Of a stretch of DNA of 32,000 bases, positions 13,385-19,183 are shown piece by piece. Source of the DNA: Promethearchaeota archaeon (lineage in GTDB: Archaea > Asgardarchaeota > Lokiarchaeia > Sigyniarchaeales > SOKP01); NCBI GenBank assembly GCA_030606485.1, contig JAUWGH010000005.1, positions 270,001-302,000 of the forward strand, read 5' to 3'. Numbering within the stretch: the first letter of the stretch is position 1; every line of letters begins with the position of its first letter. The position numbers were made by a program, and so were the translations under genes. Below the pieces are notes generated by a model. It searched no databases. It saw nothing but the letters and a program-made list of their open reading frames with translations, and was not told the origin of the DNA.

Positions 13385-16300
13385 ATGTTCCGCGTTCTTG
13401 TCCTAGGTAAACCAGAAAGTTCAATACCATATATAATGAATACGGGTGTCGAAGACGGAGAAGACCAGGAAGATATTTATGAGTGTTATAAAGAAATTAA
13501 AGTTTTTGATAATATATGTAATTTAGAAATTGATGTTGTTGCAAAACTTACAGCGGATTTTGATGAAATTATTCCTAATGTTGATGGAATAATTTATTTT
13601 CTTAACCCGATGGAAAAAAGGGAGTGGGATTTATTTGAACTTTTATCAGAAATTATTTCAGATGTAAGAAGAGGCATCCCCATAATTATTTTTTTTAATA
13701 GTCCTGGTCGAATTATATCAATCCCTTCTAATATCTTGTTAGAAGGAGTTTGGAAAAATTATCCCACGTATGAAAGTTTTATTAATTTACCCCCAAATCA
13801 ATTTTACAAGGTGCTTAGTACACTTACAGAATCAATGATTACAAGTAAAATACCAATCAATGTGGAAAATGCTTGGATGCGGCTTTCTATTTTTATATCT
13901 CAAGCAAATACTTTTTATCAAGAAGGTAAATATTATGAATCTGCAAGAGCTACAGAGTGTGCATCCAGAGTTGCAAATATATATAATATGGATGATTTCT
14001 TTATATACGGGGAGCAAGCATCTTTCTTATATTCAAAAGCATATAGATATTTAGAGGCGTCAGATGTTCTACAAGAGATTGATAAAGAGAAAAATCTCTT
14101 ATTTAAAAGATATTACGTTGATAATATGATTGCATATGGAAATCGACTTTTTAATAAAAATAATTTCGATGAAGCTGCAAAACAATATGAAACTGCTGGA
14201 AATTGGGCTTCTCTAGAATTAGAGGATAAAGAAATTATTCAACAAGCGTATAAATATGCCATTCATTCATGGATTTCAGCAACGAAAGTCGAAAATGCCT
14301 TTATTATTTGCCAAAAAATGAATAGGATAGATAAAAAAGATATATTGCATGAAATAACTGATAAAATTAATGCGTCTATAGACTATTTAATCTCGGTAAA
14401 TAAGTTAATTACTGCAAGAGAACAATTATACTTATCAACAAATATGTATCAAAAAGAAGGGTTGTTCGAAGATCTTAAGAAAATTGCAAAAAAACTTGCA
14501 GAAGTATTAATCCTAATCTTTAAAGATAAAATTAAAAAAAATGATATTTATAGTGCTAAAGAGACATATGATGAGATTGTGAATATTTGGAATACATTTA
14601 TTGTTGAAAGAGTTAATTTAGATAATCAATTAGAAAAAATAATACGTTCATTTGCAGAAGTTCTTAATTTCAATATGGTTAGTCTTTTAATTAATGAATT
14701 AAATTCTTTAGATTTGAAGAAAAAATTGACGGAATTCGTTTCTGAAGTTGAAGATAGTGATAGAGCACGGAAAAAAAAGGAACAAGAAGAATTTATTGAA
14801 CATGGAGTTGAAATCCTAAAGGAATATATTAAAGCAGAAAAAAATATCTTTTTAAATACTAGTAAAGAAGCAATTGATTTAGCAAATCATCATGTTTCTA
14901 AAGGAAAAATAATCCAAGGAGCTAGTATATTAATAGAGCAATCTCAATTGTTAAAGCATCTTGGAGAAGATGATTTATCTGATGATGTTAATATGCAAGC
15001 TTTAAATATTTTAATTGAGGGTAATTTTTTACCCGAATTTATTTATCATTCTAAGTTTTTAAAAAGAATCACAAAGAAAAGATATTTCCAAGGAAAATTA
15101 CTTCAAATTATCAATTCAATAGAGTCAATTTATAATAAGGACGGATATTCAAAAATTGAGAATTATATTGATAAATTACTAAGAATATATAGGTCTCTAA
15201 TGATTTATGAGGGTTCAACAAAATTTTCTGAATTTTGTATCGAATTAATAAAAAAATACGCATTAAAAATAATTGAAAATAACGAAAACATAAAAGGCAT
15301 AAAATCATCGCTTGCTCTAATCCAACAGGCATTATATATCTCATCATCATATTTGGATAATAAAATAATAAATTTTGACGAGATATATAAAAAAATAGCT
15401 GAAACTTATATTCTTTTAGAAGATTTAAGTCTTGCAAATACTTACAATCAAAGAATTGAGAATAAAAGATATTCAAAAATCATTAGCAAAAAAATCCATA
15501 AACTAGAATCAAAAAGAAGTGCATTAAAAGCTGAAAAAGCTGAAAAAGCAGTTAAAGGAGAGCTCTTAAAAGAAAAATTATCAATATTAAAACAAAAAGC
15601 TAAAGAAGCTTTAAGTGAACTTGAGGGGCAATTCAAATCGAGAAAAGGATTAAAAAGAACATATTTTCAAACACCTCTTATGTTACTTAATAAGAGAGAA
15701 TATGAAGATTCAATTGCTGCTTATAAAGATGTTGCTATTAGATTAACGAAAATTAACCAATATAATTTAAGTGCTATATCCATCGCAGTTGCATGTTTAA
15801 TTTTATTAAAAGAAAATCAATTTGAAAAAATTCCAATTTTTATAAATTCTATTAGAAAAGAATTGAAAGACTATGCAAAAATACTATTCGAAACATTTCC
15901 TGTGAAAATTATTGAATATATTATAGAAATGAGGAAATATGAAGATGAAAAAAGAGTTAAAGAAGCTATTGGTTTCATGAAAACTCTCCCACTCTTCGAA
16001 ATAGAAAAATTAGTATTAAGTTTATATCTAGGAGAAGATATTGATATAGCAGCTCCAGAAATGAAAGTAGAAAGAAAAATAATAGAAATTCCTGAGGGAA
16101 AAATTAGACAACCTTCTATTCAAGAGGGAAAAGAGATAAAAGCTGGTATTATACGTAAAGAAAAAGCAGAAATAGTCAAAAAGAAGATTCTATTAGAACA
16201 AAATTTAGCAAAGTTAAAACAAAAACAAATAGATTTAAGAAGAACCGTAAAAGAAGTCCTTAAAAAAAGAAGTGCTTTAAGAAGAAGATACTATAATGAG

Positions 16301-16660
16301 ATCTTAGATTTATTAAATAAAAACGATTTTAGAGAAGCGGCAAACAAGTATCTCCACGTTGCTACAATACTGATTAAACGAAAAGATTTTGAAAATGCAA
16401 GTTTTATTATACTCTTATGGGGACTATGCTTATTTAAAACAGACCAATCTCTTCAATCAATCAAAACAAAATTGGATGAAATTCTTGATACATTAGGAAT
16501 TTCGAAAGAGTTATTAAAAGATACATTCTATAATCTAATGCTATCTTTTTTAATTGAAGCAAATTTAGCAGGAGAAAATGAGTTATATGAATTGGGTAAA
16601 AAAATATTGAGTAGAGATGTCCTACCTCTATTTGATGAGGAAATTATTCTCATTTCTTAG
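13385..16660 (+). CDS. Large protein: degenerate small-GTPase-like N-terminal domain plus TPR/SNAP-like helical solenoid with duplicated C-terminal domain
   Basis: 1091 aa. The N-terminus follows G-domain strand order (RVLVLG, NLEID, VDGIIYFLN, IPIIIFFN) without intact G motifs. TPR-like helices such as YGNRLFNKNNFDEAAKQYETA. Confidence 0.75.
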   Translation: MFRVLVLGKPESSIPYIMNTGVEDGEDQEDIYECYKEIKVFDNICNLEIDVVAKLTADFDEIIPNVDGIIYFLNPMEKREWDLFELLSEIISDVRRGIPIIIFFNSPGRIISIPSNILLEGVWKNYPTYESFINLPPNQFYKVLSTLTESMITSKIPINVENAWMRLSIFISQANTFYQEGKYYESARATECASRVANIYNMDDFFIYGEQASFLYSKAYRYLEASDVLQEIDKEKNLLFKRYYVDNMIAYGNRLFNKNNFDEAAKQYETAGNWASLELEDKEIIQQAYKYAIHSWISATKVENAFIICQKMNRIDKKDILHEITDKINASIDYLISVNKLITAREQLYLSTNMYQKEGLFEDLKKIAKKLAEVLILIFKDKIKKNDIYSAKETYDEIVNIWNTFIVERVNLDNQLEKIIRSFAEVLNFNMVSLLINELNSLDLKKKLTEFVSEVEDSDRARKKKEQEEFIEHGVEILKEYIKAEKNIFLNTSKEAIDLANHHVSKGKIIQGASILIEQSQLLKHLGEDDLSDDVNMQALNILIEGNFLPEFIYHSKFLKRITKKRYFQGKLLQIINSIESIYNKDGYSKIENYIDKLLRIYRSLMIYEGSTKFSEFCIELIKKYALKIIENNENIKGIKSSLALIQQALYISSSYLDNKIINFDEIYKKIAETYILLEDLSLANTYNQRIENKRYSKIISKKIHKLESKRSALKAEKAEKAVKGELLKEKLSILKQKAKEALSELEGQFKSRKGLKRTYFQTPLMLLNKREYEDSIAAYKDVAIRLTKINQYNLSAISIAVACLILLKENQFEKIPIFINSIRKELKDYAKILFETFPVKIIEYIIEMRKYEDEKRVKEAIGFMKTLPLFEIEKLVLSLYLGEDIDIAAPEMKVERKIIEIPEGKIRQPSIQEGKEIKAGIIRKEKAEIVKKKILLEQNLAKLKQKQIDLRRTVKEVLKKRSALRRRYYNEILDLLNKNDFREAANKYLHVATILIKRKDFENASFIILLWGLCLFKTDQSLQSIKTKLDEILDTLGISKELLKDTFYNLMLSFLIEANLAGENELYELGKKILSRDVLPLFDEEIILIS

Positions 16661-16698: not shown

Positions 16699-17661
16699 TC
16701 AACTTTTTGAATTTAATACCGAAAATGCAAATTTGAGCAGGTCCTTGCATCTCATACGCAAAGTAACTTCGGTAATGTTAGATAAGTCTGCAATCTCTTT
16801 TTGAGTGCGAGGCTCATTATATTTCTTTGCTCCAAGGTAGATAGCTGCACATGATATTCCTTTAGGATCTTTTCCAGCAATTCTAAATCCATTCTTTTTA
16901 GCCCTTTCAATTATATCAATTGCATAATTCCTTACTTTCATGGATAAATGTAGGTCTTCAATGAATTTATCTACATATCGCTCAGGATCGAAATATTGAA
17001 CTTTTAAATTTAATTTAGGCAGTACTTCCATAAATATGAGACGATAAGCTTTCACAACCTTTTTCTTGGGCAATTGTGCAATTTTTACAATTTCATCAAT
17101 CGTTCTAGGAATCCCATGAACACGAAGCGCTGCAAAAATTGAAGCAGTAAGTAATGTATCTATACTACGGCCCATAGTAAGCTTTTCTTTAACGGTGTAG
17201 GTGTAGATCCTAAGACTGTCCTCTGCTACTGTGTCTGGAATGCCTAATACTTTTTGGAGTCTTTGTAAATTAGGCAATGCTATCCATAAATTTCTTTCAA
17301 AGCTAGTAGTAAGAGAACGATGTATTTTAGCAAGTCTATTAAACTGTGATTTGTATTTAGGCGTTAATAATATGCCTCGTGCATCTCTCTGACCTTTTAT
17401 GACTGTACGTGGGCCAATGGGACTATAAACTGGTTCATTCTTCTTACGTTTTCTTACTTCTTCTTGAGTAAACGCTCTTCGAGGAGAATCATCAAAAATT
17501 TGATAATACACACATCCACAGTTTAAACACACAACATAACCATTCTCCTCAATTAATTTAACTGAATCGCAACAAGGTTCTTCGTCCTGGCTAAAATATT
17601 GGTCATTTTGCTTGAAATCTTTTTTACTCATAGAAATATTAAATTTTATTGGGGGTTTCAC
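16699..17661 (-). CDS. tfb: Transcription initiation factor IIB (TFB); start GTG 17661 or ATG 17631
   Basis: Zn ribbon CC...CLNCG, RRAF, ERNL, two cyclin folds (MGRSID...ASIFAALR...PRTIDEI; GKDPKGI..AAIY...RTQKEIA...ITEVTLR). Confidence 0.93.
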   Translation of the reverse strand: MKPPIKFNISMSKKDFKQNDQYFSQDEEPCCDSVKLIEENGYVVCLNCGCVYYQIFDDSPRRAFTQEEVRKRKKNEPVYSPIGPRTVIKGQRDARGILLTPKYKSQFNRLAKIHRSLTTSFERNLWIALPNLQRLQKVLGIPDTVAEDSLRIYTYTVKEKLTMGRSIDTLLTASIFAALRVHGIPRTIDEIVKIAQLPKKKVVKAYRLIFMEVLPKLNLKVQYFDPERYVDKFIEDLHLSMKVRNYAIDIIERAKKNGFRIAGKDPKGISCAAIYLGAKKYNEPRTQKEIADLSNITEVTLRMRCKDLLKFAFSVLNSKS

Positions 17662-17944
17662 TAGAAATAAAATGAGAGTTTAAATATTTATAATTTTAGA
17701 AAAAAATGTTAATAATTTACTTAAAAAACTAATTATAAAAATAATTTTATGTTTAATCTTTTATCTTTAATCCCAAGAACTTCTTTTTTTACTGATCAAT
17801 TGTCTCAATTATTATTAATATCTTTTAAAGAGTGATTAAAATATATTAATATCATTATATAATATAATCAGAAAAAATTTAGTTTTAAAATTAGTATAAA
17901 AATTAAATAACATTAAAAAAATATTAAAAATATTAAAAAAATGA

Positions 17945-19183
17945 TTGTATATTATGAGTAAAGTGTCCAAAGAGTCTATTGCACCATTTTTAAAATATTT
18001 TGATAAAAAATTTCTTAATCTCAAAGAAATTAAAACAATTGGGGATTTAGCAAAATTACCAATATTTGCGTATAAATTTTTCACTAAAAATGATACAAAA
18101 ATCATTTCAAAACTATTTGACATTAATGTTATTGAAGATTTAAGTAAATTAGATAAAGAAAAACCATTTGACCAATTCTTTTCTCTTGATGCCACCGAAG
18201 ATCCAATTAAACAAGCTAAAATCGTTGAAAAAATGAGAAAACAAATTGATATACTTACTGCAAAAATCCCTAACCTTGATATAAAATTAAAGAAAGGGAT
18301 AATAATAAGTGATGTTATTGTTCGAGTAGCGAAAAAGAAAGAACCGATTAAGAAGAAAGAAACTAAAATTATTTGCGTGGGACTAGAAAATGCAGGTAAG
18401 ACGGCTATATTGAGTAGATTTGGAGGACGTTTAGGAATCCAAGAATTAAGTAAATTAAAACCTACAAAAAAAGTGAAGAGAAGAGTAGTAGAGACGAAAG
18501 ATCTCACCCTTCTCATATGGGATTTCGGAGGCCAGGAAATATATCGAAAGATGTATTTAAAAGAACCCGAGAAATATTTTTTCCAAACACAACTTGTATT
18601 ATATGTGATAGATGTACAAGACCCGGATAAATTTGACGAATCTTTTGAATATTTCTCCCAAATTTTAGAAATATTTAAGATTTTTGAGGAAAAACCGTAT
18701 TTTTTGATTTTCATTCATAAAAGCGACCCGGATTTACGCGAAACTCCTGAATTTCAATTAAATGTTGGTATAGCCAAGGTAGGGATAAATGATCTATTTA
18801 AAGAGCGATATATGGAGTATGAAGTTTTTACAAGTTCAATTTACGATCTTATTAGTTCAGAACCAAAATTTGCAAGATTTCTCAAAGACGTACTAAGAGA
18901 CCAACAATCTTTAACAAATCCAACCTTAGAAAAGGTAGAAGGTCTTGGGAAAATACTGGACAGCACTCTAACCGCAGTTATTCGGCTCTCTGAAAATGTA
19001 ATGGTTGAATTTGATGGAATATATAAGAGATTTGAAACTCTAGAAAATCAATTCAAGGCGGGTTTGTCAGCTCCACCACCAGAACAACCCAAAGCCACCG
19101 AAACTGATTCCCAAAGTACTCGAACGACAGTATTAAATGAATTAAAGGAATTATTTCAAAAAAGAAAGAAAGTAAATTATTAA
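17945..19183 (+). CDS. Asgard-type Rag/Arf-like small GTPase with N-terminal helical extension and C-terminal coiled/Pro-rich tail; likely start ATG 17954
   Basis: G1 GLENAGKT, G2 KPT, G3 WDFGGQ, G4 HKSD, G5 TSSIYD. Confidence 0.88.
   Translation: MYIMSKVSKESIAPFLKYFDKKFLNLKEIKTIGDLAKLPIFAYKFFTKNDTKIISKLFDINVIEDLSKLDKEKPFDQFFSLDATEDPIKQAKIVEKMRKQIDILTAKIPNLDIKLKKGIIISDVIVRVAKKKEPIKKKETKIICVGLENAGKTAILSRFGGRLGIQELSKLKPTKKVKRRVVETKDLTLLIWDFGGQEIYRKMYLKEPEKYFFQTQLVLYVIDVQDPDKFDESFEYFSQILEIFKIFEEKPYFLIFIHKSDPDLRETPEFQLNVGIAKVGINDLFKERYMEYEVFTSSIYDLISSEPKFARFLKDVLRDQQSLTNPTLEKVEGLGKILDSTLTAVIRLSENVMVEFDGIYKRFETLENQFKAGLSAPPPEQPKATETDSQSTRTTVLNELKELFQKRKKVNY

Follow-up and report, generated by a model that had tools for sequence, protein, structure and literature searches.

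What a Rag-type GTPase does when no roadblock domain is found in it, and when its switch is framed by other modules, is the question raised by a gene from a Promethearchaeota archaeon (assembly GCA_030606485.1). The gene (17954..19183, + strand) lies in the 32,000-nucleotide stretch analysed here, which spans positions 270,001 to 302,000 of contig JAUWGH010000005.1, is AT-rich (G+C content ~28%), and is called the window throughout. The protein has 409 residues counted from the ATG, of which ~130 precede and ~110 follow the G domain as extra sequence. The gene is real, intact and conserved, and its product belongs to the known RagGtr GTPases of Asgard archaea, as a variant restricted to one lineage. 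The explanation favoured in this work, to which a probability of about 0.55 is assigned, is that the protein is an oligomeric RagGtr GTP switch which has lost the roadblock domain, and docks by its C-terminal tail on a protein partner. In canonical Rags (RagA-D, Gtr1/2) dimerisation is mediated by a C-terminal roadblock domain. Rag GTPases are central to eukaryotic nutrient sensing, and their Asgard relatives inform the origin of eukaryotic signalling.

An open reading frame (ORF) of 412 codons is present at 17945-19183 on the + strand, and opens at a TTG. Since homologues at 95-97% identity have 409 residues, their initial Met matching the ATG at 17954, and those at 97% start with MSK, this ATG is probably the true start, and the TTG at 17945 lies 9 nt too early. 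Residue numbers are nevertheless counted from TTG 17945. A 292-residue antisense ORF (17836-18714, - strand) overlaps the GTPase gene; no homologue backs it, and AT-richness alone probably accounts for it. The ORF and all the motifs quoted in an earlier, sequence-only reading of this DNA were found in place. The architecture it had outlined, which combines Arf-like G1 and G3 with Rag-like G4 and G5, an extra helical N-terminus with two HhH-like units, and a conserved helix at the other end where no roadblock domain is present, stands as well.

The G domain and its class

The G domain (residues 136-320, 18350..18904, + strand) is delimited by Pfam matches, invariant columns and structural ranking. 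Pfam E values of 2e-22 (Arf) and 8e-18 (Gtr1_RagA) put its identity far outside chance. Its motifs, all on the + strand, are G1 (GLENAGKT, residues 146-153, 18380-18403), the P-T-K of switch I (18461-18469), G3 (DFGGQ, 193-197, 18521-18535), G4 (HKSD, 258-261, 18716-18727) and G5 (TSSIYD, 296-301, 18830-18847). G1, the switch I Thr, G3, G4 and G5 occur in this order, and are invariant across 24 diverse homologues; the catalytic Gln of DxGGQ, H258, K259, D261 and S298 are among the invariant positions of the alignment. Six small-GTPase families of Pfam score above their cut-offs. The protein is thus a Ras-superfamily small GTPase with intact G motifs. Because the catalytic Gln, the switch I Thr and the G4 and G5 residues are all invariant, an active GTP switch is expected, and the domain would both bind and hydrolyse GTP.

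The closest sequence in the PDB is LokiRagO (8yl2), aligned to query residues 112-354 with an E value of 1e-31; LokiRagM (8zla/9m28) follows at 4e-23, and Arl3/Arf entries at 1e-14 and weaker. When the model was re-aligned to known structures, 8yl2 again came first (Z 18.2), ahead of eleven Gtr1/RagA entries (Z 15.7-16.6) and of Arl2, Arl6, Arl3 and Arf (Z 13-15). Around switch I, the predicted local distance difference test score (pLDDT) of the model is below 50. The structural ranking agrees with published phylogeny. Vargova et al. (bioRxiv 10.1101/2024.02.28.582541, Table S3) assign TKJ20485.1 to RagGtr by tree. This protein is a plain orthologue, in which N-terminus, G motifs and tail are all the same. 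In that work Asgard relatives and eukaryotic Rags fall into one RagGtr clade, and the ArfL proteins of Table S3 feature NKQD and another P-loop. A position of the Rag-like class near Arf has been reported by Tran et al. 2024. Both structural Z scores and the label of the orthologue in the published tree place the G domain nearer to Rag/Gtr than to Arf.

The sequence-only reading had taken the protein for a Rag/Arf hybrid. The same motifs are found in Asgard Rag-like paralogues of ~300 residues, made of a G domain and a long C-terminal domain. All 23 of them share GLDNAGKT, WDxGGQ, HKxDPD and TSIY, and all match both Gtr1_RagA and Arf. The set GLxNAGKT/WDxGGQ/HKxD/TSIY is what normally marks the RagGtr clade of Asgard archaea, in which an orthologue had already been filed, and the hybrid character loses its special meaning.

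Homologues are labelled at NCBI as 'ADP-ribosylation factor-like protein', and one could suppose, along with these annotations, that the protein is a true member of the Arf family (ArfR). The Pfam Arf profile does score slightly better (2e-22, 79.9 bits, residues 135-262) than Gtr1_RagA (8e-18, 65.1 bits, residues 141-301), and both G1 (GLxxAGKT) and G3 (WDxGGQ) are Arf-like. Yet, the Arf match is limited to the G1-G3 half of the profile, while the Gtr1_RagA match spans G1 to G5. G4 is HKSD, not NKxD, G5 is of the TSIY type, Gtr1/RagA structures rank above Arf, and the orthologue sits in RagGtr, not in ArfR or ArfL, in the published tree. Moreover, the G domain is preceded by a folded domain of 130 residues, and an N-terminal amphipathic helix directly ahead of it is missing. 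Membership in the Arf family is scarcely probable.

Modules on either side of the G domain

A search of 5.8 billion proteins returned 544 matches to the GTPase, and the arrangement of domains is retained by more than 500 homologues at full length. The best 120 of them are 320-431 residues long, cover 77-99% of the query (at least 92% in all but one), drop to ~45% identity past the closest relatives, and come from Promethearchaeota/Lokiarchaeia metagenome bins. An exhaustive HMMER search retrieved 644 cluster representatives with E values below 1e-10, and 60 when the limit was set at 1e-30. In the alignment of the 24 diverse members, N-terminal region, G domain, post-G segment and tail are all conserved. 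Mean column identity, computed by region over 75 orthologues from genomes, is 0.65 in the helix-hairpin-helix (HhH)-like part, 0.75 in the G domain, 0.86 in the C-terminal helical segment, 0.50 in the linker and 0.75 in the tail. What is best conserved is therefore the helical segment which follows the GTPase core, and not the core itself.

This segment (residues 326-371, 18920..19057, + strand) is a probable oligomerisation or effector interface. The monomer model's C-terminal half, segment included, has pLDDT values of 31-60, as expected of an oligomer interface. Placed where Rags carry the roadblock, the segment would most likely drive homo-oligomerisation, by analogy with the homotetramer LokiRagO. 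A roadblock domain is absent: only ~90 residues follow the G domain, residues 301-412 have no Pfam match at E up to 10, and residues 297-412 have no solved relative among PDB sequences. HMMER aligns residues 314-354 to residues 216-252 of 8yl2, and the conserved C-terminal helix may correspond to the start of the C-terminal domain of LokiRagO, as a roadblock remnant. This idea is left as a lead, because hhalign comparisons with the ~300-residue paralogues, which have a long C-terminal domain, stop at residue 317.

The linker (residues 372-391, 19058..19117, + strand) is the least conserved region, and the distance between the anchor points at its sides varies from 40 to 54 residues. The proline-rich element APPPEQP (residues 376-382), regarded as a feature in the sequence-only reading, occurs in this lineage, and is better described as part of a variable linker. 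The very C-terminus (19118..19180, + strand; helix at residues 393-412) is of a different kind. It is near-invariant in 79 loci, and fits the consensus R-x-x-V-L-[ND]-E-L-K-x-L-F-x-K-[KR]-[KR]-x-L-[ND]-L-end, derived from 79 sequences that hardly differ in the R, the E, the two K positions and the spacing from the C-terminal end. A tail unconserved among homologues, which together with an N-terminus unlike HhH/SAM had been named in advance as fatal to the proposal, is not what was observed. The same motif closes many paralogous GTPase families of 370-500 residues, and is found in a second gene of the same genome (C8:37627-39054). The latter encodes a 469-residue paralogue with NKVD as G4, a different N-terminal extension, and a tail of the form E-L-K-x-[IL]-F-K-K. 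Specific recognition of the tail is suggested by the near-invariance of polar residues (R, E, K) and of the C-terminal register, and by the occurrence of the tail in paralogue families; a motif common to paralogous GTPases in turn implies a common receptor. A flexible linker of variable length would accordingly present a docking helix to a protein partner, plausibly one that several of the paralogues have in common.

The N-terminal domain, modelled alone from 28 sequences, reached a pLDDT of 84. In the model an N-terminal helix is followed by two units, each made of a short helix, a turn and a helix, and then by two long helices. Unit 1 (residues 28-58, 18026..18118, + strand) features an L-P turn in which L38 and P39 are invariant; in unit 2 (residues 59-81, 18119..18187, + strand) the second helix is a P-F helix, and I63, L69, P74 and F75 are conserved. 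The two long helices (residues 87-133, 18203..18343, + strand) complete the domain, and the second is shared with LokiRagO, the HMMER match to which begins at residue 112. Two 11-residue motifs, at 18026-18058 and 18119-18151, had been read as a repeat spaced by 31 residues. Each of them forms, in this confident model, the first short helix and the turn of its unit. The pair is kept across the family, and a profile-profile comparison of the two units puts 11 columns in the same register (E 0.0025). The repeat is nonetheless weak as sequence: the 31-residue offset is the best self-match within the protein, yet 8% of shuffles score as well.

The resemblance of the domain to HhH folds, proposed in the same reading, has fared in a similar way. 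In an exhaustive structural scan 13 of the 16 top matches are HhH2/SAM-like, among which Y-family polymerase thumbs, the RNA polymerase alpha-CTD (1z3e_B, Z 5.1, root-mean-square deviation (rmsd) 2.8, 63 of 67 residues), SAM domains and the N-terminal domain of Rad51. The presence of two units in the model goes along with this. Z scores are however only 4-6, a range in which chance arrangements are common, and Foldseek found nothing below E 1 with the N-terminal model. No match to Pfam was obtained with the N-terminal or the C-terminal part alone at E up to 10, and no usable match to the ESM Atlas with residues 4-135; a word-based homologue search with residues 4-112 returned close orthologues only, in no other domain context. 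The sole PDB-sequence match of the N-terminal profile, the BAR domain of APPL1 (E 0.03), was judged coiled-coil noise. A hidden Markov model (HMM) of the domain matches no other gene in the same genome, and beyond the home family a single genus, in the sister family, was the one place where the domain was seen. An HhH2/SAM-like fold is likely but unproven. The N-terminal 130 residues most likely serve protein-protein interaction or regulation, rather than DNA binding.

Alternative readings and gene neighbourhood

Several observations weigh against an oligomeric switch with a docking tail. Oligomerisation is extrapolated from a paralogue, LokiRagO, at 32-34% identity, the C-terminal half is poorly modelled in the monomer, and the C-terminal region alone matches no solved relative among PDB sequences. 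At the other end, fold matches lie in the chance-prone range, and Foldseek is silent. The tail itself is amphipathic, with lysines at the edges (the best 11-mer has a hydrophobic moment of 0.64), and as such compatible with lipid binding. The main rival builds on this last point. It assumes that the amphipathic helix at the C-terminus, polybasic at its end and carried by a flexible linker, serves to target membranes, and that the protein is a membrane-anchored GTP switch. The C-terminal anchors of MinD and FtsA, and the polybasic tail of K-Ras, are analogues, and eukaryotic Arf, Rag and Rab all work on membranes. The hydrophobic face is formed by V, L, L, L, F, L, lysines mark the borders between polar and non-polar sides, a K/R cluster is present, and the last 24 residues have a net charge of +2.6 on an otherwise acidic protein. 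On the other hand, the helix contains an invariant Glu and a conserved Asp/Asn, and polar residues and C-terminal register are near-invariant. Mean hydrophobicity is -0.31, and the moment of the 18-mer just 0.36. Fusions of Asgard GTPases to GFP were diffuse in HeLa cells (Tran et al. 2024), the present family not being among those. A docking helix is preferred to lipid binding because the tail is not very hydrophobic and has the invariant Glu; membrane anchoring is possible, and clearly the less probable of the two. The tail had been also compared to WH2-like actin-binding motifs, which would link the GTPase to lokiactin. An amphipathic helix followed by basic residues, at the C-terminus and after a proline-containing linker, resembles such motifs. 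But Pfam WH2 gives no match at E up to 10, the basic part reads K-[KR]-[KR]-x-L-x-L and not LKK[TV], and the proline-rich stretch is unconserved, so a contact with actin is very unlikely.

The N-terminal domain invites a different alternative, in which its target would be nucleic acid, or else the transcription machinery, and in which the GTPase would act with the product of a neighbouring gene. This is a TFB paralogue (16699..17661, - strand; Pfam TFIIB), divergently oriented to the GTPase gene, which it adjoins in 69 of the 72 loci with enough flank. The genome holds five TFB paralogues, 36-39% identical to each other, and only this specific one is adjacent; across the family it retains 72-74% identity. 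The fold matches to the alpha-CTD, to the polymerase thumbs and to the N-terminal domain of Rad51 go in the same direction. Binding of DNA by the domain is however not supported, because the hairpins (K-L-P-I and L-D-K-E-x-P-F) have L-P and P-F instead of the glycines of G-h-G, the domain is acidic to neutral, with a mean net charge of -2.8, and no HhH profile of Pfam matches at E up to 10. Protein binding is, in addition, a frequent role of SAM/HhH folds. Nor does gene order help, since unrelated metabolic genes found downstream in relatives, encoding a PAP2 phosphatase, a PHP-domain protein and an acetyl-CoA hydrolase, are as syntenic (64 of 69 loci), so that synteny here reflects kinship within one GTDB family. 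The nucleic-acid association put forward in the sequence-only reading is hence unlikely. Quite unlikely is also a bolder version, a Rag-type switch signalling to transcription, in which the alpha-CTD/HhH-like domain engages DNA or the dedicated divergent TFB found in ~95% of related genomes. Were it true, promoter selection in a lokiarchaeal lineage would receive a GTP-gated input that senses nutrients or energy, as a prokaryotic counterpart of Rag-to-transcription signalling.

The TFB paralogue is part of a larger block. Upstream of the GTPase are found, in order, an ECF-S/DUF2085 fusion, a 228-residue gene, the gene of a 1091-residue TPR/solenoid protein (13385..16660, + strand; Atlas TPR clusters) and TFB, and order and orientation are kept in ~95% of the loci with enough flank. 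The solenoid gene is in place at 55 of 58 such loci. It is confined to the same taxonomic order, being present in 44 of 45 genomes of the home family and in 4 of 4 of the sister family, and its 180-residue head has 68% column identity. The head was considered as a possible pseudo-GTPase, a label that finds no support in the sequence, as no similarity to RagGtr/GTPase profiles (hhalign) or to PDB sequences was detected. For both TFB and solenoid, conserved neighbours as they are, a functional link to the GTPase is unproven. Conserved synteny is treated here as kinship and general gene order, and as weak evidence of a functional link, because the downstream metabolic genes are equally syntenic, all the synteny loci come from one GTDB family, and in the sister family solenoid gene and GTPase lie 90 kb apart.

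In most relatives, PAP2, PHP and acetyl-CoA hydrolase/GNAT genes reside on the opposite strand after the GTPase in 57-64 of 69 loci (L003:9272-12760 and equivalents). The lineage of the present genome has an M20 peptidase and other genes there instead, and a local rearrangement must have had its breakpoint immediately past the GTPase. Only the closest relatives have the downstream genes of the window, namely the M20 peptidase, MFS-longin and a V4R-like gene. A nutrient-sensing neighbourhood was rejected on these grounds: of 80 loci, 7 have the M20 peptidase next to the GTPase, and only 2 have the V4R-like, MFS-longin and other downstream genes.

Distribution and comparison with known systems

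Orthologues, defined by a cut-off of E <1e-60 in a sample of 201 Asgard genomes, come from 43 of the 45 genomes in the home GTDB family and from 1 of the 4 in its sister family; the ~150 other Asgard genomes of the sample gave none. No member turned up in the sister family's complete, cultured-type genome. One copy per genome is the rule. In one related genome, three full-length copies lie in tandem beside the solenoid gene (G190:C10:626917-630996), and several genomes (e.g. L073, L077) have a second copy elsewhere, with a divergent tail. The present genome (3.75 Mb, 100% complete) hosts at least 10 Rag-like paralogues. A contig labelled 'Candidatus Nanopelagicaceae bacterium' (DATKTW010000124.1) carries the solenoid-TFB-GTPase block, and is probably mis-binned or mislabelled. 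The block is also present in several bins named as Hodarchaeota, Hermodarchaeota or Odinarchaeota. Here again the names are probably mistaken, because within the GTDB sample no lineage has the gene except one lokiarchaeal family and a genus of its sister family.

The Rag-like group is already catalogued in Asgard archaea, and the domain arrangement described in this work is a variant confined to one lokiarchaeal lineage. No description of such an architecture was found in the literature searched; the paper behind the related PDB entries (8YL2, 8ZLA) may cover part of it. The variant shows that, within Lokiarchaeia, Rag-type G domains have been recombined with modules other than roadblock or longin. 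These are the head, which is SAM/HhH-like, the helical segment with its high conservation, and the short, putative docking motif at the C-terminus, common to paralogous GTPases. Once found, the receptor of the tail would represent a piece of Asgard GTPase wiring lacking a described eukaryotic counterpart. Direct bearing on eukaryogenesis is limited, since the GTPase has a range of one lokiarchaeal family, and was not found in the other Asgard lineages sampled.

Each part of the protein has its own term of comparison. The N-terminal domain would share with five-helix HhH2/SAM-like modules the two short-helix/turn/helix units 31 residues apart. It differs from them because its hairpins have no glycines, because it is acidic and has no sequence-profile match, and because it is extended by an N-terminal helix and by two long helices. 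With Arf/Arl proteins and Asgard ArfR the protein has in common the G1 and G3 motifs, the match to Pfam Arf (2e-22) and Z scores of 14-15 to Arl2, Arl3 and Arl6. In contrast to these it has HKxD in place of NKxD, and no N-terminal amphipathic helix, and falls outside ArfR and ArfL in the published census. The layout of Arl13b, in which a G domain is followed by a helical region and a proline-containing tail, is loosely similar.

Eukaryotic RagA/Gtr1 (PF04670) share HKxD, TSI[YW]D and the WDxGGQ of switch II, and have a G-domain fold that ranks just behind LokiRagO (Z 15.7-16.6). Identity is however ~20%, and G1 is here GLxNAGKT, not of the eukaryotic Rag type. The present protein features an extra N-terminal domain and a putative C-terminal docking helix, and is roadblock-less, so that neither Rag-style heterodimers nor docking to Ragulator are to be assumed. 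Closer relatives are found among Asgard proteins. LokiRagM (8ZLA/9M28), titled a monomeric Rag-like small GTPase, is the weaker match of the two solved (E 4e-23, Z 13-14). LokiRagO (8YL2), a homotetrameric RagA-like small GTPase of Lokiarchaeota with 342 residues, is free of the ~110-residue HhH-like N-terminal domain, and has ~90 further C-terminal residues which do not align. It is at the same time the best match by sequence (E 1e-31, same G motifs) and by structure (Z 18.2, rmsd 2.9 over 170 residues), and the alignment takes in, besides the G domain, the helix ahead of it and ~35 residues after it.

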